This document shows, piece after piece, positions 18,474-61,539 of a stretch of 64,000 nt of DNA. Positions within the stretch are counted from its first letter, which is position 1, and the number at the start of each line of letters is the position of its first letter. Made by a program: the position numbers and the translations under genes. Source of the stretch: Candidatus Latescibacterota bacterium (GTDB lineage Bacteria > Latescibacterota > UBA2968 > SICM01); assembly GCA_965217865.1 (NCBI GenBank), contig CBDCJO010000002.1, positions 3,968,001 to 4,032,000 on the forward strand, in the 5' to 3' direction. The notes under the pieces are model-generated. The model had not been told where the DNA came from. It saw nothing but the letters and a program-made list of their open reading frames with translations, and made no database searches.

Positions 18474-18639
18474 CCCGTGGATCGTGGTTCGTGGATCGGA
18501 AAGAAGAGCCGTCAAACGTGAGACGTGAGACGGGAAAGGCAGGGATTGGAGGCACGTGGCCTGGGATGCTAGCGTCATTCCAAAATGACCCGGGATTCTC
18601 TTCGCTCAGCCGCAACAAAAAAGATGTAGGCATCTTTGC

Positions 18640-19219: not shown

Positions 19220-22200
19220 ATGAATAAACAGCCCCCTTTTACTCGACCTCACGCGTTTGAAAATCGCAAATTGTGGATCTTCGCCTTCAGATTTGCAATT
19301 TCCTGATCTTTTCGGATGGCTGGTCCGCTGATCGTAGTGCCGCTCCGCGAATCGCCCCCACGATTGCCCGTCTGTCCTTCTGGTTGTCCCCTGACCGGTT
19401 CAGCGAGTTCGAGACGACATACCGAGAAAAACTTGTGCCTATCCTGAAGAAGCACGGTCTGGAGGAATCTTCGGAACGTGGACGCGCGACAATAGACGGG
19501 GTGTTCAGCCGTCTGTTCGAGGTGAGGGCGCCATCGGAGATTCCTGAAAGGAATAACGCCCTGCGAAATGACACAGCCTGGACTGCGATCCTGAAGGCGT
19601 TAGGGGAGAGTTTCGGAACCAACCGTAATGATGGAACGATTCGCCACAGCCTTCACCTTTATGCCGCGCCAGGAGCGCCTCCCAGAGTCGTATCTGCGGG
19701 TACAGGCAAGATCGTGCCCGCCGGGACAGGGAGGGGCCACTGGCGCACCTATGACGTGACGGACGGTTTGGCCGACGTGAATGTACAAGACATCCTACAG
19801 GATCGAGAGGGTGCCCTCTGGTTCGCCACCTCTAACGGTGTGAGCCGGTACGATCCCCTTCGACTCGCTGACGCTCGCTCAGGGCAGGCTTCGACAAGCT
19901 CAGGACAGGCTCTCCTTCGACTGTCCGGCACAAAGCGCAGCTCCGCTCGTGACATAGTGTTATCGATCATCCAGGACCGGGACGGGGAGATCTGGTTTGG
20001 AACCACAGGAGGGGTAGGGCGGTACGACGGGAAATCCTTATACCACTTTTACCAAGAAAGATGGACTGGCGGACAATTATGTGGTGACGGTCTTTGAAGA
20101 TCGGGATGGCACTATCTGGTTCGGAACCGAGGGGGGCGGTGTGAGCCGGTACGATAGGAAAAAATGGGAAACTTTCACCACCCGGGATGGGCTGGCGAAT
20201 AATTATGTAACAGAGATTTTTCAAGATTCAAAAGGAAATCTATGGATCGGCACGGAAGGCGGGGGGCTTAGTCGGTATAATGAACAGAAATTTGTCACTT
20301 TCACCACGAAAGACGGTCTTGGGGATAATCGAGTGGAGACGATCTTTGAGGACAGGGAGGGGGTTCTCTGGGTCGGCACCCAGGGGGGAGGTGTATCGCG
20401 GTTTGACGGGACGAGGTTTTCGACCTTCACCACGGAAGACGGCCTGGCCAATAATGTGGTGCGGTCGATCTTTCAGCACCGGGAAGGGCATCTCTGGTTC
20501 GGCACGGGCGGTGGTTTAAGCCAGTATAGCGGGCCGTCCTTTACCTCTTTTGCAGCCCGGGACGGCCTGGGGAACAACCAGGTGGAGACGATCTTTGAGG
20601 ATGGGGACGGGATTCTCTGGATCGGAACCGATGGCTCAGGTGTGAGTCGGTATGATGGGGGTGACCTTTACGCGCTTTACCGTACAGGATGGCCTGGCCA
20701 ATAATGAGGTTCGTTCGATCTTTCAGGATCGAGATGGAGTACTCTGGTTCGGCACCCGGGGCGGGATGAGCCGGTATGATGGCGTGACATTCACCAATTT
20801 TACGTTGGAGGGTGTGCTGGGGCATGATGAGATTCAATCGATTTTTCGAGACCGGGAGGGAAATCTCTGGTTCAGCGTTGAAGGGGGCGGGCTCATCCGG
20901 AATAATCCCTCCGGAGCCGAAAGGTCCTGGACGGTTTTCACCTCCGAGGATGGGGTGGGTCGGCATACGGTGTTTTCGATCTTTCAGGACCGGGATGGTA
21001 TTCTCTGGTTCGGCACCATGGGCGGGGGTGTGAGCCGGTTTGACCCTTCCGGCTCCGTAGGCCATGGACAGAGATTTATCACTTATACAGAACAGGATGG
21101 CGTTGGGCACAACGATGTGTTTTCTATCTTTCAAGACAGGGAGGGGTTCCTCTGGTTCGGTACGCAAGGCGGAGGGGTGAGTCGGTATGATGGTCAGGCT
21201 TTTACAACATTTACGACCCAGGACGGCCTGGCCAACAATGTGGTGCGATCGATCATTCAGGACCGGGAGGGCCATCTCTGGTTCGGAACATACGGCGGGG
21301 GCGTAAGCCGTTATGACGGGAATGACTTTCAGACTATGGACCTTCGGGACGGTCTTGCGGGCAACCAGGTGCTCTCCGTCATTCAGGATCGGAACGGTAA
21401 TCTCTGGTTCGGAACTTACGGCGGGTTGACGCGATATCGACAGCCTCTCTCGTCCGCTCCTCTGGTGTCTATCGAAGCGGTGGTGGCGGACCGCCGGTAT
21501 ACCGTCGGATCCGAACTGGAAATTCCCTCGAGTGTAAATCTGACTGCCTTTGAATTCAAGGGGATCAGTTTCAAGACCCGGGCGGAGTCGATGGTTTACA
21601 GGTATCGGTTGAAAGGCTACGACGAGGTCTGGAAGTCCACCCGCGCCCGGCGTGTGGAATACCCGGACCTTCCGAGAGGGGACTACACGTTCGAGGTGAG
21701 GGCAGTGGACCGGGACTTGGTGCCGTCGGACCGACCGGCATCGGTGACGATGCGAATACGCCTGCCTTATGAAAGAATCGCCTGGGTTTCAGCACTTGGC
21801 ATCGCTATAGGACTGATCGCCTGGCAGACAACCCGCGTGGTCCAGCGGGGACTTCGGCTGCGGGAAGGCGAGGCGCGGTTTCGGGGACTGTCAGAGGCCA
21901 CTTTCGAGGGGATTGCGCTCCACGAAGATGGTAAGATCCTGGATGCGAATCGGGCCCTGGCCACGATGTTCGGATATGATCCCTCTGGGATAATCGGAAA
22001 GACCGCCGCAGAGCTGTCTACTCCGGAATCGCACGGAATTGTCTACAAGAATATTCAATCCGGATATGATAGACCGTATGAGGTGGTGGGTTTGAAAAAG
22101 GATGGATCCACCTTTCCGATTGAGGTCATCGGCAGGGACGTTCCCTATCGTGGGCGCATCGTCAGGGTCACTGCGATTCGGGATCTCACGGATCGTAGAC

Positions 22201-23477
22201 GGGCGGAGGAGGAGCGGGCGAAGCTGGATGAACAGCTACAGCAGCTTCGCTATCTCTACCGGCTGCGGACCGCGATGGCGGGCGGACGGTCGCCGGAGGA
22301 GATCATTCGTAAGGCAGGCGAATCCGTGATGGAGGTTCTGTCGGTTTCAGGTGCGGGGGGCGCTCTGATCGATTACGATGCACGGACTTATAAGTTTGGG
22401 GAAACGGAGGGTGAGAACCTGATTCGTTACAAACGTCCGGTCGCCTGGGGGGAGCGGGAGCGGGGGGTCTTGCGGCTTTTCTGCAGCGTCAAACTGAGCG
22501 AGTCGCAGGAGCGTGCGCTCCTGGACGAGACGGCAGCGCAGATGGCACGGGCCCTGGAAGCGCGTGATCTGGAGCTGCAGCTTTTGGAATCCGCCCGATT
22601 GGTCTCCCTGGGGCAGATGGCTGCAGGCGTTGCCCACGAGATGAATCAGCCTCTGGGGGCGATCTCGGCCACGACGGAGGACTATTTCCTGAGATTAAGA
22701 GAAGGCATGGCGGTCTCTGACGAGCAGTGGACAGAGATGTTGAAACGGATTCTGGGCATGGTGGACCGCATGTCGGGCACGGTGGAGCATCTGCGGGCTT
22801 TTTCGCGAGACTCCTCAGAGGAGCGGGGTGTGCGGATGTCCGTAAAAGAGGTGATTCAGTCGGGTCTGGGCCTTATCGGGACTCAACTCAAGAACCACGG
22901 GATCGATCTGCATACCGAATTTGGGGAAGATGTGCCGGAGGTAAGAGGCCATCCTCGCCAGCTGGAACAGGTTTTTCTCAACCTGATCGGTAATGCGAGA
23001 GATGCGCTGGACGAGAAGGATGAAACCGTGGATCGTGGATCGTGGATCGTGGATCGTGAAATGACAGGCGGGAGGCAGGCGGTAAAGGCGCAAATAGGTT
23101 ATGACGAGTCACGAGTCACGAACCACGAATCACGTGGAGGGAGAGGGGATGGGACTAAGGGATGGGCGAAGCGTTTGATCATCCGGACCCGGCAAGAGGG
23201 TGACGATGTTGTGGCGGAGGTGGAGGACAACGGCGTTGGGATCGAGGAGGAGAATGTCGGACGGGTGTTCGAGCCGTTCTTCACGACCAAGGAGGCGGAT
23301 AAGGGAACGGGATTGGGGCTGTCGATTTCGTATGCGATTGTGAAGAACCACGGGGGAGAGATTGTGTGTGAGAGTCGGAAGGGGGAAGGTACGGTGTTTA
23401 GGGTGAGATTGCCGTGGGAAGAACGTGAAACGGCAAACGTGAGACGTGAGACTAGGAAAGTGAAACGTGAGACGTGA
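19220..23477 (+). CDS. Beta-propeller (Reg_prop)-YYY-TM-PAS-HisKA-HATPase sensor histidine kinase, split by 2-3 single-base frameshifts
   Basis: Repeated 'SIFQDRDGxLWFGTxGGVSRYDG'; YRYRLKGYD..W (YYY); PAS KKDGSTFPIEV; H-box VAHEMNQP; N-box NLIGNARDA; G-box GTGLGL. Frame breaks at ~20040 and 20657-20661, and probably at 19299-19301. Confidence 0.88.
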
Positions 23478-23538
23478 GACGTGAGAGGGGAGTCCGCCGC
23501 AAGCGGACTTTAGATCCTCAAACGGCAGACGTGAAACG
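23421..23538 (+). repeat. Left heptamer array (A[AG]ACGTG / AAACGGC)n upstream of the four-helix-bundle gene
   Basis: GAAACGTGAGACGTGAGACGTGAGA and similar units. The array also encodes the kinase tail (VRRETRKVKRET). Confidence 0.9.
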
Positions 23539-23549
23539 AGGGGATTGTC

Positions 23550-23912
23550 ATGTTGGATTTGCGTCATAAGAATCTGGAGGTTTGGAAAGCCAGTATAGAC
23601 TTCGTAAGTGACATATACCAATTGACAGGAAGTTTCCCCCAAAAGGAGTTGTACGGCATCACCAGTCAACTGAGAAGGGCTGCTGTCTCCGTCCCGTCAA
23701 ACCTCGCAGAAGGCTGTTCTCGGAGCTCTCCACTTGAGCGGAAGCGGTTTTACGAAATTGCCCGCTCCTCCTTGGTTGAGATGGATACCCATTTTGAGAT
23801 CTCCAGAAGGCTCGGATACTGCTCGGAAAATGATCTTAAAACGCTTTCAGAGAAAATGAATCATATTTTTGCCCTGCTTTCTCGGTTGCTTAAAAAAACG
23901 CAAGCATCATAA
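23550..23912 (+). CDS. Four helix bundle protein (23S rRNA IVP / TIGR02436-type)
   Basis: L.VW..S, FPQKELYGITSQLRRAAVSVPSNLAEG, FYEIARSSLVE and LGY signature. Confidence 0.93.
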   Translation: MLDLRHKNLEVWKASIDFVSDIYQLTGSFPQKELYGITSQLRRAAVSVPSNLAEGCSRSSPLERKRFYEIARSSLVEMDTHFEISRRLGYCSENDLKTLSEKMNHIFALLSRLLKKTQAS

Positions 23913-23958
23913 GCGTGATTTCACTGCCTGATATTGCCCAGGTATAGTAGACACAGAG

Positions 23959-24816
23959 TTAAGTGAATTTCTGTTCGAAGTCATCTGGGCTCATCTGGTT
24001 AATATAGGAGTGCCTGCGTATCTTGTTGTAAAATCCTTCGATGTATTCGAACAACGCCAACGCGGCTTGCTCTCGATCTGGATAGATCATTCCGTCGACT
24101 TCCTCTGTCTTGAGCCTTGCAAAGAAGGATTCAACAACGGCATTGTCATAACAATTTCCCTTTCTTGCCATGCTGGATCGGAAGCCGTTTTTGTCCAGCT
24201 CGGCTCTCAGGGCCTCACTGGTGAACTGGTTTCCCCTATCTGAGTGGAAGATGAGCCCCGGTTGCGGCTTGCGTCGCCGACAGGCCATCCGAAATGCCCG
24301 TAAGACCAGATCCGCCGTCATAAGACAGCCTGTGGACCAGCCTACGACTTTGCGAGCAAACAGATCCAACACCACGCACAGGTAAAGATATCCCCGTCGC
24401 GTGCGGATATAGGTGATATCCGATGCCCAGACCTTGTCCGGCTTATTCACCTGAAACTGCTGCTTCACCAGATCCCGGGACGCCAAACCGATGCCACCTT
24501 TGGTCAGCACCCGGAACCGACGCTTCGGCTTTCCCTGGATGCCGCAGGCCCGCATCAGCCGCGCAACACGATTACGGCTGCACATAATGCCTTCAGCCTT
24601 GAGATCTTGCGTTATCCGAGGACTGCCATACGCCCTCTTCCTGGAATGCTGATGCACTCTTCGAATGTGCTCAATCAGAGCACGATCGCGCTTGCATCGA
24701 CCACTTTCTGGCTCCTGGTGCCAGGCATAATAACCGCTTGGATCAACCTCCAGCACCCGGCACATCCGCCGTATCGGAAACTGACCCCGGTGCTCTTCGA
24801 TAAAGGCGTATCTCAT
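23959..24816 (-). CDS. IS3 transposase OrfB (DDE integrase core)
   Basis: YGSPRI, WASDITYI, HSDRGNQF, DNAVVESFF and YNKIRRHS motifs. Confidence 0.95.
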   Translation of the reverse strand: MRYAFIEEHRGQFPIRRMCRVLEVDPSGYYAWHQEPESGRCKRDRALIEHIRRVHQHSRKRAYGSPRITQDLKAEGIMCSRNRVARLMRACGIQGKPKRRFRVLTKGGIGLASRDLVKQQFQVNKPDKVWASDITYIRTRRGYLYLCVVLDLFARKVVGWSTGCLMTADLVLRAFRMACRRRKPQPGLIFHSDRGNQFTSEALRAELDKNGFRSSMARKGNCYDNAVVESFFARLKTEEVDGMIYPDREQAALALFEYIEGFYNKIRRHSYINQMSPDDFEQKFT

Positions 24817-25109
24817 TGGGACCGGTTGGAGAAGTAGGCCAGCGCTTTTTTTAGGATGTCTCGCTCTTGCTCGACCTGGGAAAGCTTGCGCTTCAGATCG
24901 TAGACCTCCTGGCCTTCCGTTGTCCGCTTCCCGTGACCCGGAAACACATCATCCGGATGCTTCTGAAACTGACCGATCCATCGATACAACACGCCTTCTG
25001 GAATGTCCCATTCCAGGGAAACTGCCTTCACCTTCTCGCCGTCCACCAGTACCTTACGAACGGACTCCAACTTGAACTGACGATCGTACCGCCTGCAACG
25101 ACGTACCAT
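24813..25109 (-). CDS. IS3 transposase OrfA (HTH)
   Basis: RRYDRQFKLESV...ERDILKKALAYF; A7G slippery site at 24845-24852 (minus strand); ATGA overlap with orfB. Confidence 0.92.
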   Translation of the reverse strand: MVRRCRRYDRQFKLESVRKVLVDGEKVKAVSLEWDIPEGVLYRWIGQFQKHPDDVFPGHGKRTTEGQEVYDLKRKLSQVEQERDILKKALAYFSNRSQ

Positions 25110-25165
25110 AGAGGACACCTCCCTTATCTGGGTGTCCACTAAATCGGGGCAAGATTAGCCTAGCC

Positions 25166-25199
25166 TTTTCCCGTCTCACGTTTCACGTCTCACGTTTCC
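25166..25199 (-). repeat. Right heptamer array, inverted relative to 23421..23538
   Basis: TTTTCCCGTCTCACGTTTCACGTCTCACGTTTCC is the reverse complement of GGAAACGTGAGACGTGAAACGTGAGACGGGAAAA. Confidence 0.9.
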
Positions 25200-25210
25200 A
25201 GGTCCATCTG

Positions 25211-25811
25211 ATGTCCCCACCTAACTCACATCGTGGCCTTTCTATTTTACTCATCGACGACGACTCCGCCGTCCTGACTGCTGTAGGCGATTATCTGAGC
25301 ACACGGGAACACCGGGTATTCCCCGCTGAGGAAGGCGCGGAAGGTCTGGAGATCCTGCGGCGCGAGGAGATCGACATCGTGATCACGGATATCAGGATGC
25401 CGGGGACGGGCGGGTTCGAGGTACTCCGGGAGGTTCGGAAAACGTCTCCGGGTACAGAGGTCATCATGGTGACGGGGTACGGGGACATCGACGGTTATTC
25501 TTTGCAAAGATGGCTGGATCACGCGGAAGGAGATGCGGTTTGAGCCATCCGGCGTGTCGCGATTCGATAAAACCAAGGACCAGGAAGAAGGGGGTTCGAG
25601 CGACGATACCGCGTCCGATCTGAGCGGTGCGCTTCGTGCGGTCTCGGAGAAGGGGTTGAACCTATCCGGAATAGAGGCGGAAGCGATCCGGGAAGCATTA
25701 AGAAGAACCCAAGGAAGTCAAGGACAGGCGGCGGCGCTTCTCGGTCTTTCCCGGTTCGCGCTTCGGAGGAGAATGGGGATTTACGGGATCGAGGCAGGGC
25801 GGAAAGAATGA
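25211..25811 (+). pseudogene. NtrC-type sigma54-dependent response regulator with the central AAA+ domain deleted
   Basis: The receiver (LIDDD, ITDIRMPG, VTGYG) breaks at ~25492 before the conserved Lys. Another frame then reads VILCKDGWIT...IEAEAIREALRRTQGSQGQAAALLGLSRFALRRRM (end of AAA lid plus Fis HTH). Confidence 0.8.
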
Positions 25812-25883
25812 GAACGAAATTATGAAATTGAAAAATTTCCAACTTATTGCGGGCTTCGCTTCGTTCGGTCACAACAAAAAAGT

Positions 25884-25950
25884 GTAGAAGGCATCGCGCG
25901 GGAATGAATTCCCGCGCTACGTATAAAAAGTCCGCCACAGGCGGACTCCC
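25884..25950. repeat. REP-like double hairpin, copy 2
   Basis: Direct near-identical copy of 18640..18705. Confidence 0.85.
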
Positions 25951-26037
25951 CACCTTTGACTACGGACTCCCCCGTCTCCCGACTATCCTGTTCATTCCCG
26001 CACACCCACGTTAAGTCTCCGCACTACATCCTTCCCT

Positions 26038-26596: not shown

Positions 26597-26645
26597 TCTT
26601 GGTTAGGGGATTAGTTCACCATTGTTCAATTCGGAGGGATCACCA

Positions 26646-29600
26646 ATGAAACTGTTCCGAAAATTTTCGATTCCAATGGCAACGCTGGTGTGCTGCGTAC
26701 TCGGATTCGCTGCCCAGGCGGGTGCCGGATCAGATATCATCACCACGATCGTTGGAGGCGGCGAGGCGGGCGGGCCCCTCGGGGACGGCGGCCCGGCAAC
26801 CAGCGCCGTGCTTAACAACCCGACAAGTGTGATCCTGGACAGTGCCGGCAATTTCTACATCGCCGACGAGAGAAACTATAGAATTCGCAAGGTCGATACT
26901 TCCGGAATTATATCAACGATCGCCGGAACCGGAGAATCGGGAAATTCAGGGGATGGCGGGCCGGCGATTGAAGCGAAGATGAGCCCAGAGGACATCGCAT
27001 TGGATTCCAGCGGCAACCTCTACATCCTCGGGAGTTCAGCGGAGTATGGGGTTGGGATTGTCCGCAAGGTCGATCCTGCCGGCGTGATCACCACGGTCGC
27101 GGGCGGTGGGCACTTGGGCATCCTGGGCGACGACAGTCTGGCCACGGAAGTCACGTTTTCTTTTGCAACAGGGATCCACGTTGATGAAGCCGGCAACCTT
27201 TACATTGCAGATGCTGGCGCTTCCCGCATCCGGAAGGTGGACCCCACGGGTATCATCACGACCGTCGCGGGGAACGGCACGGGCGGGTATTCCGGTGACG
27301 GAGGCGCGGCCATTGACGCCAGCCTGGGTAGCCCGCAAGATATTTTCGTTGACAACAATGGAGACCTCTACATCGCAGAACGGTTTAACGGTGTGATCCG
27401 CAAAGTCGATCCCTCGGGGATCATCACCACTGTTGCTGGAAACGGCAACAACGAAGCCCGATTGAGCGCGCCTAATGACATCTTCGTCGATGGAGGTGGA
27501 AACCTCTACATCGCCTCCAGTTCAGAAATTCGCCGGGTTGATCCATCCGGCATTATCACCACCATCGCCGGGGGAGGATTTGGAGATCTGGGCGACGGCG
27601 GCCCGGCCACCGAAGCCACCCTGAATAACCCGGCGGGTATCTTCGTGGACGGCTCCGGCAACCTCTACATCGCCGATACGGGAAACAACCGGATCCGCAA
27701 GGTGGCGCCGGCTTCTTTCCAGATCGCGTTGACTGCCACGCCGGATTTCATTTTGGAGTTGGAATCTTCGACGATTCGCGCGGAAATCCAGGACCGGGAC
27801 GGCAACCTGCAAAGCGATGACAATTCCACGGTCGTGACCTTCCGGATTACCAGCGGCGAAGGGACCCTGTCGGACGAAGAGGTGACCGCCTCGGGCGGGG
27901 TCGCGACCACCACCCTGACCTCTGAGACGGTCGGGGTCGTTAACATTGTGGCCGGTGCGCCAGATTCCGAAGATGGAATCCTGTCCGTCGAAGTGAAAGG
28001 CCCACAGGTGGTCATCTCGCTGACGGCCGACCCGAGTATTGTAACGGCAGACGGCTCCGATGCCTCCACCTTACGTGTGGAAGTCCGCGATCTGAGCGGC
28101 AACCTGAAGACCGGTGACAACAGTACCGTCGTGACCTTCCGCATCATGGGGGGGTTCGTATCCGAGGGCGGAGGGAGTCTGTCTTTCGAATCGGTAACCG
28201 CTTCGGGCGGGGTGGCCACCACGACCTTTAGAGGCAGCATGCCCGGTCAGGTGATCGTTGAGGCCGCCGCGTCGGGCGCGAGGGAGGTGACCGTGATCGT
28301 GTCCGTGTTGCGGGTTCCGTCGCAAACCGGGCCGTTCGGTCCCCCGCCGGTTTTGGAGATCGGGCCGGGTGAAATTGGCACGATTGCGGGGGGTTGGATC
28401 GGTGACGGGGGCCCCGCCACCGAGGCCGGCCTGAGCTCTCCGAGAGACCTTTTTGTGGACGGAGCCGGAAACCTCTACATCGCGGACAATGGAAACAATC
28501 GCATCCGCAAAGTCCACACCTCCGGCATCATAACAACGGTTGCGGGAACCGGCGATAAGGGTTTTAAGGTCGACGAAGGCGGACCCGCAACCGACGCGCA
28601 GATAGCCCTTCCGCTTGCCGTCACGGTCGATGCGTTGGGCAACATTTACCTTGCCCAATTTCGCACAGTGTGGAAGGTCGATACCTCGGGCATCATCACC
28701 AGAGTGGCCGGGTCGGGCTCTATATTGGACACTGGCGGCGACGGCGAACCGGCCACGGATACGAAAGTGGAGGGAATCACCGCAATTGCCGTGGACGGCT
28801 CCGGCAACCTTTTCATAGCACAAGAGAACAACCGGATCCGCAAAGTCGACCCGTCGGGCATCATCTCCACTGCGGCGAGTGTAGACGAACCGCTCAGCCT
28901 GGCGGTAGACGCATCAGGCAATCTCTACATATTGAGAAGGGACAGAAGCAGGAGCGTGACCCTCGTCGCAAAGATGGCCCCTTCGGGGACCATCACAACA
29001 ATTGCGGGCGGGGGCGGGGGGGGTGGCATACTCATCGAAGGCAGTCCGGCAACCGAGTTCCAACTTCTTGCCTCCTCGATCTCCGTGGACGCCGCGGGCA
29101 ACCTTTACATCTTGGGGAATGACAGGGTTTTGCGGGTGGATCTCTCGGGCGCCCTCACTACGGTGGCGGCCAATATCGGCCGTGGAACCGGCATAGCTCT
29201 AAATAGTGCGGGTGAGGTCTACTTCGCTGACGACGTTGATCACCGTGTGCGTAAAATCGGGACCGACGGCAGCATTGTCACCGTTGCAGGATCGATCGGC
29301 GACGGCCGACCTGCGACCCAGGTCAGCTTTATAAGCCCGCAGGGCATTACCATGGACAACGCGGGGAACATCTACATCGCGGATTCGGGCAACGGACGCG
29401 TTCGAAGAGTCGACCCGACCGGCACGATTTCCACAGTCGCCGGCGGGGGCACGGCGAGGGGGTCGGGCTTTCCCTTCATTGAATTCGTCGGTCCGGCCAC
29501 GGAAGCCGCGTTGAACCCCAGCGGGCTGGCCCTGGACGCGTCCGGCAACCTGTACGTGGTAGAATGGCAAGGCCACCGGATTCGGAAGGTGGACACGTCG

Positions 29601-32600
29601 GGTATCATCACGACCGTGGGGGGGACCGGAACACAGGGATTTTCAGGCGACGGGGGGGCGGCAACCGGGGCCAAGTTGAACCAACCTTATGGCGTTTTCG
29701 CAGACGGTTCTGGCAGTCTTTACATAGCGGACCAAGGCAACAACCGGGTGCGAAAGGTGGACCCCTCGGGAACGATTACCACGGTGGCGGGTAAGAGCGG
29801 GTCCGGTCCACTCGAGGAAAACATCCCCGCCATTGAAGCGAATCTTTTCGGTGTTTCGGCCGTGTTCGTGGATGGATCGGGCAACCTTTTTATCGCGCTA
29901 GGCTCTCGTGTCGTAAAGGTGGACCTGTCGGGCATCATCACGACCGTTGCCGGGGACAGGATTGCCGACCACGTGGGAGACGGTGGCCCTGCGACTGCTG
30001 CTGCTATGCAACCTGCAGACATCTTCGTGGACGATCTGGGGGACCTCTACATTGCGGACACGCGACACAACCGGATCCGGAAAGTCAGGATTATCCCTTC
30101 GCAGACCACGGATACCCCGGCCGGTACAGACGTTCCAATCGCATTCTCGGCCCAAACCTTGGGTGCCGCACCGGTCTCGATGACCTTCGGGCAGGTGACG
30201 CAGGCCGGTGAGACGACACTGGAGACAAGCGGCTCGGGGCCCGCAACGCCCGGAGGATTCCGGCTGATCGATCCCAGCGTGTTCTACCAGATCACGACGA
30301 CAGCCGCCTTCGAAGGATCGATCGAACTCTGCCTGGACTACACCGGGCTGAATGTCACAAACGAGTCCGAGCTGAAGCTGTTTCATTTGGAGAACAGCGT
30401 TTGGGCGGACGTCACCACCTCTCAGGACACACAGGAGGACGTCATCTGCGGCAGCGTGACGTCGCTGTCCCCGTTCGCCCTGTTCGAGACCCCGTTGCCC
30501 CCTCCCCAACCCGACTTCGCCGCGGACACGACCGCAGGGGTCGACTCCCTTACCGTGAAGTTTACGGACACCTCTGTTGGCAGTGTGACGGCCTGGGTAT
30601 GGTCGTTCGGTGACGGGGACAGCTCTTTCGTACAGAACCCGACGCATACCTACACGGTGGGAACCTTCACGGTGATTCTGACGGCCACGGGTCCGGGGGG
30701 ATCGAACACGATCGGGAAGGCGGACCTGATCTCGGTGCTGGAGGGGGTCAAGGCGGATTTCAGCCCGGACACCACCTCCGGACGTGTCCCGCTTGTCGTA
30801 ACGTTCAGCGACCCCTCCACAGGCACGGATCCTCTGAGCACGTGGTTGTGGACTTTTGGGGACGGGGACTCCTCCAGGGTTCAACATCCGACGCACACGT
30901 ATACGGAGGCCAATTCCTACGACGTAACGCTCACAGTCACAGCCGAAACCGGAACGGACACAAAGACGGTTCAGGACCTGATTGTCGTAACTCCGAACCT
31001 GTCGCCCACGGCCCCAGTCCCGCTCTCCCCTGCGGACGGCGCGATCCGGGTGCCCCTGAGTCCCACTCTTTCCTGGGGGAGTTCGATTGATCCCGAGGGG
31101 GACCCGGTCAGCTACGACGTGTTCCTGGGCACGGACCGGGTTGGGAGCACGTCGGACACGACGCAGATGGTGGGACCTCTGGACGAGGACACGGGCTACA
31201 CCTGGCACATCGTGTCGAAGGACGACCGCGGCGGCAGCGCGGAGGGTGCGACACGGGCGTTCACGACCGTGGGAGATACGCTTCCCCCTGTGGTCACGCG
31301 CGATCCTGTGGTGGAGGCGATCAGGCAGAGCGGTTTCAGGGTGGTCTGGCGGGTGGATGAGCGGAGCACGCCTTCTGTGTCGTATCGGGTGAGCGGAGAG
31401 ACCACCTTCACGACCTCTCCTGAGGGTTCATTGGGCAGGGACCAGCGAGTCGATGTGACGGATCTGTCGTCCGCGACCACGTACGAGTTCAGGGTGACCT
31501 CGCGGGATTCGTCGGGCAACGAGACGACGTTCCCGGATCCTCCCTATCCCACGGCCACGACGCTTGCCGAGGCGGACACCGAAGGTCCGCTCTTCACGGT
31601 TCTCCCGGCGGCCGAACACGTTTCCGACACAGTGATCGTGGTGGTGTGGAAGACGAACGAGAGCAGCACGACCGAGCTTCTGTACCGGGTCGAATCGGAT
31701 ACAGCGTTCGTTACCGGGCCTGCCGGTGCCGCGGGCACGAACCACCGCGGTGCGATCGGGGGGCTTACCCCCGGCACGAGTTATGTCCTCAGGGCCCGGT
31801 CCGTGGATGCCAGCGGGAACCCTTCGGTGGGGCCGGATCTGACGGTCACGACGGCGCCGCCTGTTGTGGAATCTATTCCGATTCGGGTTTCAAACGTGAG
31901 CGTGGTGGGTCGAACCGAGTCGCAGGCGATCATCGATTGGAGCACGAATCAGCCCGGCAGCAGTGTGGTGGAATACGGGTTGGGTTCGACGCTCAGGACC
32001 TCACAGACGGAGACCGGCGAGGACGGAGTGCTCGAGCACCGGGTCACGCTGTCGAGGCTGACCGATGACACGCCGTATTTCTATCGGGCCATCTCCGGCA
32101 CGGACACGAGCGATGTGTTCAGCTTCAGGACCCGGAAGGCGGTTCCGCCCGTACCGGCTGTGATCACGGAGGGCCCGCTTGTCCGGGGTATCGGGGAGGA
32201 CCGTGCGACGGTGCTGTGGAAGACGGACGTATTGGCCAGCAGCAGGGTGGAATTCGACACGACCGAGAATTCCTTGACACAGACCGTTTCCGATCCGGAC
32301 GGTGTGACGGATCACGCGGTGACGCTGACGGGTCTTTCGGCCTCCACGACGTATTTCTACAGGGTCGCGTCCGTAAACCTGTCGCGGCTGACGACGGAGA
32401 GCGACGTTTTCAGCTTCCGGACGCTGGACGCGCCGGACACGACCCCCCCGTCGATCCTGGAGCTGTCGGTTCCGGTCCGGACATCGGATGGATTTACGGT
32501 GACGTGGCGGACGAACGAGATCGGCACTTCGGAGGTGATCTATGCCGAGGACGGGGGTTCGGAACAGAGTCGAATCGCCCCGGGTTTCGCCGTGGATCAC

Positions 32601-35600
32601 AGTCTCAGCCTGTCCGGTTTGAGTGCGGAGACGACGTATGTGATCCGGGTGCGGTCGGCGGACCCAGCGGGGAATGGTGCGGAGAGCGAAGTGCAGGAGG
32701 TGACGACGCTGTCCGAGGCGGTGGTGGATGTATCGTCGCCCCGGCTGGTCAGAGCGCCCTCTGCTGCAGGGAGCTCACACGAAGGGGCTACGATTGTCTG
32801 GGGGACGGACGAGCCGGGCAACAGCCTGGTGGCCTATGGGGTGAGTGAGGATGACCTGCCCGAGGAACAGGGAGATTCGAGGCGTTTTACGACGGATCAC
32901 TCGGTGAGGCTGACCAATCTGGAGTCCGCCGAGATCTATTTCTTCCAAGTCTCCTCGACGGATGCCTTTGGAAACGGTCCGACGATTGGGACCGGGACGT
33001 TTACGACTCAGGCTGCTCCGGACACGATTTCGGTGAGCATCACAGAAGGTCCGACCGTGGTGTCGGTCACTGACGAATCCGCGGTGCTGTCCTGGAAGAC
33101 AAATGAGTTGAGCGACACGCAGGTGGATTACGCGGCGGGGTTAGACCCGACTGCGGCCGGCCTGACGCAAAGGATTATCCTGCCCGGGGCTGTAACGGAC
33201 CACCAGGTGACCCTGACGAACCTTTCCCCGAGCACAGGCTACGCGTTCCGCGCAGGATCGCAGGACGTTGCGCGGAACCCGCGGACTTTTAGCACGGACC
33301 GGACGTTCACGACGGAGGCAACGCCAGACACGATCCCACCGGACCTTGTGGGGGCGGTGACGATCAGCGAGCGGACGTCCACGACGATCACGCTGATCTA
33401 CACCACGGACGAGCCGACGAATACGGTGGTGGAGTTATGGGCTATCGGACTACAGCCTGGGACGCATCGAGCGTGGGTCCCTGAAGCTGACGCGGAGCGC
33501 GACGTTGACGGGATTGACTTCGGACACGGAGTACCGGTTTCGGATCAGTTCCCGGGACCGGGAGGGGAACGGGGTGACGACGGACCCCACGATCACGATC
33601 CCTCCGCCGAATACCCGGCTGCGATCCGATGACCTGCGGTCCACGACGACTGCGGAACCGGACGTGATTGAACCGGCGATTGTGGAGGGTCCGATCGTTT
33701 CGGTGAGCGGGAATAACGTGGTGGTCCGGTGGATCACGGACGAGCTGTCGGACAGCCGGGTCATCTACGCAACGATTGAGAATTACAACCGTCCGGGCCT
33801 GGAGAGCGAGGTGTTCGACGGTGCGTTGGTGACGGTTCACAGGATCACGCTTTCGCTAGATCTGAACACGCAGTACCTGTTCCGGACCCTCTCGACGGAT
33901 GTGGAGGGAAACACGGGGACATCGGGATCGACGGGGTCGACCAAACCGGCGGTTGATGGTCTGTCCCTGCAGGCGCCCGGGGCGGATGGGAGCTTTGAGA
34001 CCCCCATCGTGGCAGATACCAGTCCCCCTGTCATCCTCTCGGGGCCCACGCTGGTCGGGGCCACTTCGACATCGCTGATTCTGCAGTGGATTACGAACGA
34101 GGCCTCGAACAGCTTTGTGGAATATAGCGTCGGGGGACAGCCCGCCGGCCGTGTGGAGGATGGAACGCCCTTGACCCAACACCGGCTTGTTCTGACGAAG
34201 CTTGCACCCGGAACGACTTACACGATCAAAGTGGGCTCCACCGACCCATCAGGCAACGGTCCTTCGGTGAGCAGGCCCGGTGTGGCCTCGACGACGGCGG
34301 AGGTGGACGCCTCTCCGCCAAGGATCATTGAAGGCCCGGAGGTCTTCAAGAGCGACCGAGAGGCGGTCATCACATGGAAGACAGATGAGCCGGGAAACTC
34401 GACGGTGGAGTATGGAGCAGGGAGCGTGTTAGGCCTTACCCGGTCGATCCCGGACGCAGTGACCGGGCACCGGGTGATTCTCGCGAACCTGTCCCCGGAT
34501 GCCTCCTACAGCTTCCGGGTGGGATCCCTGGATATCTCGAACAACGGTCCGACGTGGTCATCGATAGAGGTGTTTCAGACAGACCCGACGCCGGATACAA
34601 CCCCACCGGACATCCCTGCGGATCCGGAGGTCACGGCGATCACGGATGAGACGGCTACGGTGTCGTGGGAGACGAACGAGGTGTCCGACAGCGGGGTGTC
34701 GTTCGGGACCTCGGCCTCGGATCTGGACTTTCAACATCGGTTCCTCCGAGGCGGTGAAGGACCACCGGGAGGTGCTGACCGGTCTTTTGCCTTCGACGAC
34801 TTACTTTTTGCAGGTGAGCTCGACGGACCGGTCGGGGAACGGCCCCACCTTCCGACCGGCCTCGGATCAGACGGTCTCGTTTACGACTGAGGACGCGCCG
34901 GATATGTCTGCTCCGGCAAAGGTGCAGGAGGTGCTGGGTGTGGTTGGGAGCCGGGCAATCCTTTTGACCTGGGAGGAGGGGTCGGAAGACGACCTGGCCG
35001 GTTACAATGTCTACCGGGCAACCGGGGAGGATGAACTCGGACTGATCGCCTCGAACCTGATTGACGCACGGTTCCAGGATGTGGGGTTGACGGATGAGGT
35101 GCCCTACCGGTATGCGGTGGCTGCGTTCGACGGCGCGGGCAACGAGGGGGAGAAGTCGGACGAGGCCTCGTTCACGCCCTCCGAGGCGAACGTGCCAACT
35201 GCCCCTGCCTTCCTGACGATCGAGGGGGAGGCGTTGATCCCCACTTTCGTTGTGGAGAATGCCACGGCCCCCGGGACCGCGGACCTGACCTACACTTTCC
35301 AGGTGTCGGCTCGAGATGACTTTGCGGACCTCGTGGACTCGGCCACGGATCTTCAGGAGGGGAACGAATCGACGGAGTCGGGGCTGACGGCCTGGACGAT
35401 CACTCGAGAGCTGACCCACGAAGCCACCTACTTTTTACGCGTGCGGGCAAACGACGGAACATTCGACGGTCCCTTTATGTCCCCGCATACCTTCCTTGTG
35501 GATACGACGGTCGTTTCGAATCCGGGTGACTTCAATGGGAGCTTCAAGGTGGACTTCGACGACTTCTTCCTGTTCGCGGCTGCGTTCGGACAGCCCGCAA

Positions 35601-36439: not shown

Positions 36440-36589
36440 GGAGAGCTGGCAAACGGCAAACGGCAGTCAGGGGTCGGAGGTCGGAAGTCAGGGGTCAGAG
36501 GGCATCCGATTTTGGGAGGGCCCGCGGCCTCGCGGGCCGGGATTTTGACGAAACTGCAAAATTCGATCGAATGTCAGACCCCCTGCGCC

Positions 36590-38768: not shown

Positions 38769-39284
38769 GGTATGAATGCCTGAATCTCCTCCGTGTTATC
38801 GGCCCAAGCGGCGCGCGGGATGAAAGGAAATTTAAAATTCAATCGATTCCCCCGGACTGACTTCTTGACTTCCCGTGTGCCTGCCAGTAAATTGCCCGTT
38901 AAGCCGGCAAACGGCAAACGGCAAACGGCAAACGGCAAACGTGAAACGGGAAGGCATAGATTGGAAAGGCCGTGGTTCGTGGATCGGAGAATCCGGGGTT
39001 CGTGGTTCGTGGCTCGGGGTTCGAAAAGGGAACCGGCAAAGTTCTGGGAGGGCCCGCGGCCTCAAAAAGACGGTCGATCGTGAATCGTGATTCGTGGATC
39101 GAAATGACCGGGAAGCGTATCTCGGGATTCTGAAAACCTCTGACAATAAAGGCTTGGATGTTAGCGGACGCCGGGGCCGGCGTCCCTCCACAAAAGACCG
39201 TGGATCGTGGATCGTGATTCGTGAAGCGTATCTCGAAAATGCTGTCTAACATTAATTTAACTTTCATGAAAGGAATGATTTTGT

Positions 39285-45286: not shown

Positions 45287-45415
45287 GGATGCACCTCATT
45301 TGTGAAGGACCGTCAAACGTGAGACGTGAGACGTGAGAACGGGAAAGGCAGTAGCAGTGGCAGGACCGGATCCTGACCCCACCGATTCACGATTCACGAA
45401 CGACGATTCACGGTT

Positions 45416-53898: not shown

Positions 53899-54003
53899 AT
53901 CAGGATCCCTTTCGGAAAACCCGTAGATCGTGGATCGTGATTCGGGGATCGGAAAAGCAAAAAAAACTTTGGCAATTCATCCAATAATTCCCATCGATCA
54001 TTA

Positions 54004-54075
54004 ACGAATCACGAATCACGAATCACGAATCACGAATCACGAATCACGAATCACGAATCACGAATCACGAATCAC
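54004..54075. repeat. Perfect heptamer tandem array (ACGAATC)x10
   Basis: Counted directly; faces an inverted degenerate array at 53921-53952. Confidence 0.95.
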
Positions 54076-61283: not shown

Positions 61284-61539
61284 GGTGTCGCCACGGAGGA
61301 TTTCTATATATTACACAGGGGTCGGGGGCCAGGGAAAATTGAAGATCGACGATTGAAGATTATTGAAGATTGAAAATCGAAGAGATCCAAATGGCCACAG
61401 TAGTCCTGAGGTGTTCAAATCTTCAATTTTCCGATATTCAATATTCAATGAAGTTTGGGAGGTGAGGGGGAATTCAAATGCAAAATGCAAAAACCCGTGT
61501 CGCGCCCAAAAAGGAATGGTTCAAGAACTGTAATAGAAG

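Follow-up and report, generated by a model that had tools for sequence, protein, structure and literature searches.

A four-helix-bundle protein gene between inverted heptamer arrays: a candidate nuclease-less passenger cassette in a Latescibacterota two-component operon

Why does a small gene of a protein family known from 23S rRNA intervening sequences (IVS) lie between inverted tandem arrays of a 7 bp word within a protein-coding operon? The question is raised by a 64,000-nucleotide stretch of DNA from Candidatus Latescibacterota bacterium (assembly GCA_965217865.1, contig CBDCJO010000002.1, positions 3,968,001 to 4,032,000), referred to here as the window, in which a gene for a 120-residue four-helix-bundle protein was found between genes for a sensor histidine kinase and a response regulator. 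The reading that we favor, with a probability of about one half, is that the gene and its two heptamer arms form a DNA passenger cassette without a nuclease, which is predicted to loop out in the mRNA by pairing of the arms. The unit is widespread and, as a unit, apparently undescribed. If this reading is true, it brings together two long-standing questions, what the S23p/IVP family does and why heptamers are over-represented in bacterial genomes, and renders both testable. It would also pair each protein with a candidate ligand word, offer naturally occurring alleles of one site (empty, gene-less or filled), and describe how a gene that lacks a nuclease of its own can insert, at little cost, at stop-start junctions or within genes.

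The first-pass annotation, made from the DNA letters, had described inverted 7 bp arrays enclosing the four-helix gene, and this description was borne out. Across 30 nt, the arm cores at 23462-23491 and at 25169-25198 show 93% complementarity. The duplex formed by the flanks was predicted at -72 kcal/mol, compared with -47.4 ± 4.8 kcal/mol for shuffled sequences (z -5.2), and none of 300 shuffles reached a value as low. The mean pairing probability of the predicted stem is 0.94-0.95, whether the insertion sequence (IS) that interrupts the right arm is present or removed. The stop codon of the kinase (23475-23477) lies within the left arm, and a Shine-Dalgarno (SD)-like AGGT of the regulator (25200-25203) follows directly beyond the stem. 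The features of the locus, in window positions, are as follows.

20652..23477, plus strand: sensor histidine kinase (beta-propeller, Y_Y_Y, PAS, HisKA and HATPase_c); the array encodes its final 20 residues together with the stop, and the catalytic domain is intact.
23026..23134, plus strand: heptamer hairpin without a gene, (CGTGGAT)n ... (ACGAATC)n, in frame in the HATPase domain of the kinase; fold z -4.6.
23421..23486, plus strand: left heptamer arm, purine-rich, with the words ACGTGAG / AAACGTG; period-7 array at 23422-23486, stops in all three frames.
23487..23511, no strand assigned: palindrome resembling repetitive extragenic palindromes (REP), which breaks the left arm; its pattern has 6 matches across the genome, mostly beside a GTAG-type palindrome.
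23513..23543, plus strand: inner portion of the left arm; its 3' end is the SD-like GAGGGG (23538-23543).
23550..23912, plus strand: four-helix-bundle protein gene, 120 residues; PF05635/TIGR02436, homologous to Xcc0516 (2GSC) and Avd-like in fold.
23913..23928, plus strand: inner portion of the right arm; its 3' end is the first GCC target copy.
23929..25157, minus strand: IS3-family element of 1229 bp with orfA (24813-25139) and orfB (23959-24816); a later insertion, outside the cassette proper.
25158..25201, plus strand: second GCC, 5 extra nt and the pyrimidine-rich right heptamer arm; period-7 array at 25167-25198, core at 25169-25198.
25211..25811, plus strand: remnant of an NtrC-type response regulator, with a truncated receiver and an out-of-frame Fis-type helix-turn-helix (HTH) domain; the central part is deleted.

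The identification of the gene product as an IVP/Avd-like protein was confirmed by profile searches and by the predicted fold. The open reading frame (ORF) 23550-23912 matched PF05635 (E 6e-36, 123.3 bits, cut-off 33.8) and TIGR02436 (E 8e-35, 119.4 bits, cut-off 24), and Xcc0516 (2GSC) was recovered with phmmer at E 1.7e-28; no match to Pfam bAvd at E 0.001 or better and none to Y1_Tnp was obtained. A structure of four helices was predicted (predicted local distance difference test, pLDDT, 75), which aligned with 2GSC at a template modeling (TM) score of 0.81-0.87 (E 5e-8) and with Avd (4DWL) at about 0.79, at 7-8% identity. Four arginines (R43, R58, R66 and R72) are invariant, and the net charge is +4. 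Purifying selection acts on the protein (median dN/dS, the ratio of nonsynonymous to synonymous rates, 0.10; all 76 close pairs at or below 0.23), and its gene has a GC content of 46%, compared with 58-59% in the flanking genes. As the PDB entries of the close homologues 2GSC and 2RLD each hold five chains, likeness to Xcc0516 and Avd suggests that the protein is probably an RNA-binding pentamer. A protein tree, built from few alignment columns with incomplete optimisation, was used for rough labels only.

Period-7 arrays are a general property of this genome: 306 were counted, compared with 2-43 for every other period from 4 to 11, and a control for the pairing of flanks was therefore needed. 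Flanks of homologous loci and of control genes were scored with one scheme, a score of at least 30 being taken as inverted flanks; the homologous loci were the best 80 of 239 matches minus 3 at contig edges, and these 77 loci are related rather than independent. Inverted flanks were detected at 66 of the 77 loci, compared with 76 of the 5276 called genes of this genome, which bears out the enrichment at four-helix genes that the first-pass annotation had proposed to test. In direct orientation the same threshold was reached at 5 of 77 loci. Where a period-7 array was present on both sides, 31 of 33 loci had them inverted and 2 direct, and only one of the 5276 called genes had an array on each side as well as an inverted score that reached 30. 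The other three four-helix copies of this genome, which were tested directly, scored 40-46, and the four paralogues have four different words; the copy at C2:852894 is flanked by two complete hairpins. A frameshifted four-helix gene was also observed at G000:C2:1734300-1734616, with inverted arms of period 6 instead of 7.

Empty kinase-regulator junctions, a search for which had been suggested in the first-pass annotation, were found at homologous sites. Among 36 loci with homologous regulators, 13 have a kinase C-terminus directly upstream; 12 of these junctions are empty, one carries a gene-less heptamer hairpin with other words, and none holds a four-helix gene. An empty junction (L265) and the hairpin-bearing one (L096) come from one genome of the same family and are nearly identical in sequence there. 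The insert in L096 is placed just past the RLP codons and just ahead of the SD sequence, without a duplication, which is the position of the insert in the window. Only distant relatives (at most 59% identity) were returned by a metagenome scan with the regulator, and no relative was found among viral contigs with the query used. A contig from sequencing run X9 covers kinase and regulator and lacks coverage of the gene middle; as no joint across the gap was seen, it was not scored as an empty site.

The neighbors of the gene vary. Thirty different upstream gene clusters precede 74 homologous loci, and PF05635 is present in 10 of 41 related genomes. Of the loci that could be determined, 57 of 66 lie between co-directional genes. 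Relative to the end of the upstream stop codon, the outer end of the left arm lies a median of 4 nt earlier, and a median of 13 nt separates the end of the right arm from the next ATG (n=47); in the same 47 loci the median distance from stop to start is 522 nt along the linear sequence and 18 nt when folded. Arm words were more alike between left and right arm of one locus (0.37) than across loci (0.07). Across phyla, as labeled by the names in the sequence records, similarity of the arm words was 0.53 for pairs with at least 65% protein identity (29 pairs) compared with 0.016 below 45% (457 pairs), and arm word and protein relatedness were correlated (Mantel rho 0.41). A shared word pattern, A-R-W-N-R-N-S, also served to set the register and is therefore partly circular; it was not counted as evidence. 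Taken together, empty, gene-less and gene-bearing sites, varied neighbors and an arm word that follows the protein across phyla support the proposal of the first-pass annotation that the unit is mobile without a transposase. Co-inheritance would equally account for arms that accompany the protein, and the commonest array families have no cognate gene; that the protein may recognize or propagate the repeats, as the first-pass annotation suggested, is thus a mere possibility.

Copies nested in a coding sequence bear on what happens at the RNA level. In this phylum, a site in a methyltransferase gene (PF01555) is empty at 24 of 31 loci and filled at 7. The inserts measure 486 nt (three loci), 459, 225, 479 and 493 nt, so that five of seven are multiples of three; the 225 nt insert is internally deleted, and those of 479 and 493 nt are off by one heptamer. 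Across the nested four-helix gene no stop interrupts the host frame in any of the four copies examined, whereas none of 80 ordinary, AT-richer copies has such an open frame; by synonymous shuffling the chance of such a stop-free frame is 0.05-0.17 per gene, and three of the four copies represent one insertion. The open frame argues for translation through the insert and against splicing or ribosome bypass. Precise excision of the cassette from RNA, which the first-pass annotation had considered, is thus not supported, and arm mismatches show no G-U bias either. Within these DNA methyltransferase genes the four-helix cassette is nested out of frame, with the host frame open (L102, L103, L107, L108, L127, L135 and L151, from G001, G035, G008, G012, G089, G131 and G139). 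Two of the nested alleles, which differ by a single heptamer, shift the host frame and represent a possible slippage on/off switch.

According to the favored reading, gene and arms would move together, through host recombination or a trans-acting enzyme and without target duplication, and the cassette would enter as DNA at stop-start junctions. Insertion may be tolerated there through the stops that the left arm provides in every frame, and the stem would shorten the distance from stop to start from about 520 to about 18 nt and so keep the operon readable. Within genes the cassette would be translated through and not removed. Internal deletion and 7-base slippage would let it decay to gene-less hairpins and solo arrays, and such decay is a probable source of the hundreds of heptamer arrays in this genome. 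A bolder extension, which we put forward as speculation and consider unlikely, is that nuclease-less mobile elements of an undescribed class have four-helix genes as their autonomous members. Each Avd-like pentamer would recognize its own word and, aided by host enzymes acting in trans, would spread the cassette and its hairpins without a gene; the rRNA IVS would then be a special case and the bacterial heptamer excess the fossil record of the class.

Several observations weigh against the passenger cassette. The gene caller used for the control was crude, and the genome's own four-helix copies are absent from its gene list, while the 77 homologous loci were selected as best matches and are mutually related. 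In genomes of the same class 7 of 15 copies scored at least 30, several being broken or poorly aligned. Most arrays of the genome are unpaired, and the commonest heptamer words have no cognate gene. The empty junctions belong to homologues at 54-75% identity, which may not be orthologues. Arm ends close to a stop and an SD sequence are expected for any insertion into a tight operon, and the placement is therefore suggestive only. Arm mismatches comprised 90 G-U and 84 A-C (p 0.70; 26 and 22 when counted by locus), so that pairing at the RNA level is without support from covariation. In no more than 12 of 77 loci did a left arm pair best with the right arm of that locus, and complementarity therefore follows from the shared word and not from position. 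As the kinase stop lies within the stem and pairs with 25183-25185, a translating ribosome would melt it. Finally, coverage in the RNA run X22 was limited to IS-like and kinase-like pieces.

Four other explanations were weighed. An intervening sequence carried on mRNA, in which RNase III cuts the stem, frees the gene RNA without ligation and splits the operon transcript as in 23S rRNA, has a precedent in Coxiella burnetii, whose 23S IVS encodes the same protein family and has a 28 bp terminal stem with tandem GACAGAT heptamers at an RNase III site that is cut in vitro (PMC4990558). The stem in the window has 29 of 30 positions paired, an RNase III gene is present in the genome, and a cut at an intergenic site would leave both genes translatable. 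The host frame that stays open across the methyltransferase-nested copies (4/4 vs 0/80) nevertheless implies at least partly uncut read-through, and the lack of a G-U bias speaks against selection on the RNA stem, so that we regard this explanation as unlikely. It is doubtful, too, that the protein plays an active part, as an Avd-like pentamer that binds its cognate heptamer RNA, each subunit taking about one unit, and that either controls array-flanked genes or spreads cassette and arrays by recruiting a reverse transcriptase (RT) or a nuclease in trans. Purifying selection, the invariant arginines with a net charge of +4, the Avd fold (TM about 0.79 to 4DWL), a median array of 4.1 units and the pairing of four paralogues with four words are all in line with it, as is the contact of one RNA stem-loop with all five Avd protomers (bioRxiv 2023.10.23.563531). 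On the other hand, the three RTs of the genome are unlinked to the cassette, the commonest words (AAGATTG, AATACAG and AATCACG) flank none of the four genes, the link between word and protein is explained by co-inheritance, and the mode of the array copy number hinges on the detection threshold.

Ordinary slippage repeats of the host, strand-biased around stops and starts, could in principle box any small gene inserted in an operon with a purine-rich array before and a pyrimidine-rich array after it. At a lower threshold, 622 period-7 arrays were detected, mostly intergenic and unpaired. Solo arrays of the genome comprise 253 purine-rich ones near stops and 131 pyrimidine-rich ones near starts, and an equal polarity is published for Xanthomonas (PMC4692102). 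Against this, the combination of arrays on both sides with inverted flanks in 1 of 5276 genes only, the sharing of words between left and right arm (0.37 vs 0.07) and a word that follows the protein across phyla make such an origin very improbable; host slippage as a source of the arms is already largely refuted. We give hardly any credence to a precise removal at the RNA level, whether the cassette is spliced out and the flanks are re-ligated or the ribosome bypasses the hairpin. A long terminal stem would juxtapose the flanks, and cassettes do occur inside protein-coding genes, but five of seven in-gene inserts are multiples of three, with the other two off by one heptamer, and no stop interrupts the host frame over the length of the nested gene (with the chance level and shared insertion given above); an insert that is removed would require neither. 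No joint skipping the whole cassette was among those listed for 8 runs, of which 7 are not recorded as RNA and the RNA run is without coverage of the gene.

The IS3-family element was identified by its transposase (NF033516, 340.6 bits, cut-off 160), imperfect terminal inverted repeats, orfA and orfB with an rve domain, and GCC on both sides. An IS-free allele, in which a contig from sequencing run X7 joins 23925 to 25163, retains the four-helix gene, and the IS3 is therefore a later event than the cassette. The clean GCC target duplication claimed in the first-pass annotation stood as far as GCC flanks the element on both sides; the site is not perfectly clean, as the IS-free allele lacks five nucleotides (TAGCC) that are found in the window. 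A second copy of this IS3 in the genome ends at GCC and the same arm word, and heptamer arrays abutted or split by IS elements were observed at G000:C2:1028088, C2:2321228 and C2:3037436-3038884; heptamer arrays may be IS insertion hot spots.

The state of the two operon genes matched the first-pass annotation in part. Its claim that the left array had overwritten the C-terminus of the kinase holds for the tail and the stop codon: homologues stop a few residues past RLP, whereas the kinase in the window continues after ...RVRLP with a 20-residue array-encoded tail, and therefore only tail and stop were replaced. The HATPase_c domain was not lost and is complete to residue 922 in a profile search. 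The four-helix gene does lie between kinase and regulator, as claimed, yet the regulator is a deletion remnant, with a truncated receiver domain (25211-25543) and an orphan Fis-type HTH domain (25533-25811); homologues have 460-495 residues, and a contig from run X9 has about 480 nt more at 25492. As the regulator is already broken, the copy in the window may no longer be under selection for operon read-out. With an IS in one arm and a broken regulator, it is probably decaying, and it is therefore an example of the class rather than its best test object.

Further heptamers and repeats were observed around the kinase. At the HATPase spot of the in-frame hairpin, the G001 kinase homologues carry heptamer insertions with other words, and more distant homologues have none. 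These in-frame insertions (window 23026-23134; L096, L097, L098 and L099) thus differ in word between homologues; the hairpin in the window has one mismatch per 7 bp, and its length varies between strains. The beta-propeller region upstream of the kinase (19273-20704) is spread over several frames, which may point to a frameshift or to decay in the N-terminal part of the sensor. Paired palindromes, one of them GTAG-type, form a family with about 7 loci; it is represented at 25884-25954 and 23487-23511, half of one lying in the left arm. An ORF of 2336 residues at 26622-33632 is probably secreted and contains NHL-, PKD- and fibronectin-type-like repeats, as judged by eye.

Elsewhere in the genome, the 622 arrays found at the lower threshold have a median length of 4.1 units, and their copy-number mode varies with the detection threshold. 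Few inverted neighboring arrays were found in the genome at the strict threshold, most arrays being solo. The most frequent words are AAGATTG (43 arrays), AATACAG (27) and AATCACG (24). Intergenic chains of heptamer families together with a GCAGTA-type hexamer run in a single orientation, purine-rich past stops and pyrimidine-rich ahead of starts; examples in the window are 18476-18532, 36448-36501, 38905-39216, 45317-45412, 53922-54075 and 61334-61492. No other gene family convincingly boxed by heptamer arms was identified in the genome, as long left-right pairs mostly enclose later IS or ordinary genes, and GxxExxY was not found in the genome search. Promoter and terminator scans stayed at chance level.

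How does the cassette compare with known systems? IS elements and MITEs (miniature inverted-repeat transposable elements) differ from it in several respects: its only transposase is that of the later IS3, its arm words vary between copies, and no duplication distinguishes L265 from L096. REPIN-RAYT systems, whose REPINs are the nearest analogue of the gene-less hairpins, likewise combine scattered gene-less inverted-repeat hairpins with a cognate gene tied to the repeat (PMC3337134); in the cassette, however, the arms are periodic 7-mers and not palindromic REPs, and the gene does not encode an HUH transposase. Among 5 of 19 Y1 transposase matches that were inspected, none was boxed by cognate heptamer arms. 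The Avd protein of diversity-generating retroelements (DGR; 4DWL, 8UB7) shares the four-helix fold, and five chains are present in the PDB entries of close homologues, but identity is 7-8%, bAvd was not matched and no reverse transcriptase is linked. Three RVT_1 matches were found in the genome, all megabases away from the cassette (G000:C2:451254, 487638 and 814892, two of them near-identical), so that no DGR-type RT lies next to it. By eye, these three are presumably of Abi/defence types. No long direct repeat was detected within 22500-26000, where no dedicated search for template/variable repeats was made. The link of the family to Avd has already been published (PMC10053308; bioRxiv 2023.10.23.563531).

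Dispersed heptamer repeats resemble the arms of the cassette in being intergenic period-7 arrays, often in inverted pairs. GGGAATC arrays of Xanthomonas form 70 inverted pairs in Xcc and are purine-rich past stops and pyrimidine-rich ahead of starts (PMC4692102), TAACTGA arrays lie ahead of starts in Beggiatoa (PMC4679880), and heptanucleotide families were catalogued in Geobacter (PMC2700814). The main texts of these three reports mention neither a four-helix gene nor a role of the repeats as cassette arms or relics; a row in the Xcc supplement places an array 6 nt past the bccP stop, overlapping the start of xcc0516, and marks it as not inverted (PMC4692102). A close likeness is to the 23S rRNA IVS (S23p/23S_rRNA_IVP), with which the cassette shares the protein family, complementary terminal arms, heptamers upstream of the ORF and a sporadic, horizontally acquired occurrence (PMC4990558); IVP ORFs are also found at scattered rRNA sites in bacteria of the candidate phyla radiation (CPR; bioRxiv 2024.02.27.582315). 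A terminal stem like that of an IVS is predicted here from the 30 nt arms. The location differs: the cassette in the window belongs to a protein-coding operon, copies nested in a gene are read through, none of the 80 homologous loci matches 23S, and C2:2784112-2787138 holds the only 23S gene found. Because of this location the cassette is not a member of the rRNA IVS. By analogy, it works like an ORF-bearing IVS transferred into mRNA. In the open-access literature no paper was found that connects inverted heptamer flanks in mRNA operons with the PF05635/TIGR02436 family; the parts of the cassette were published separately, in the IVS of Coxiella and the heptamers of Xanthomonas and Beggiatoa, and the link between them is apparently new to that literature.

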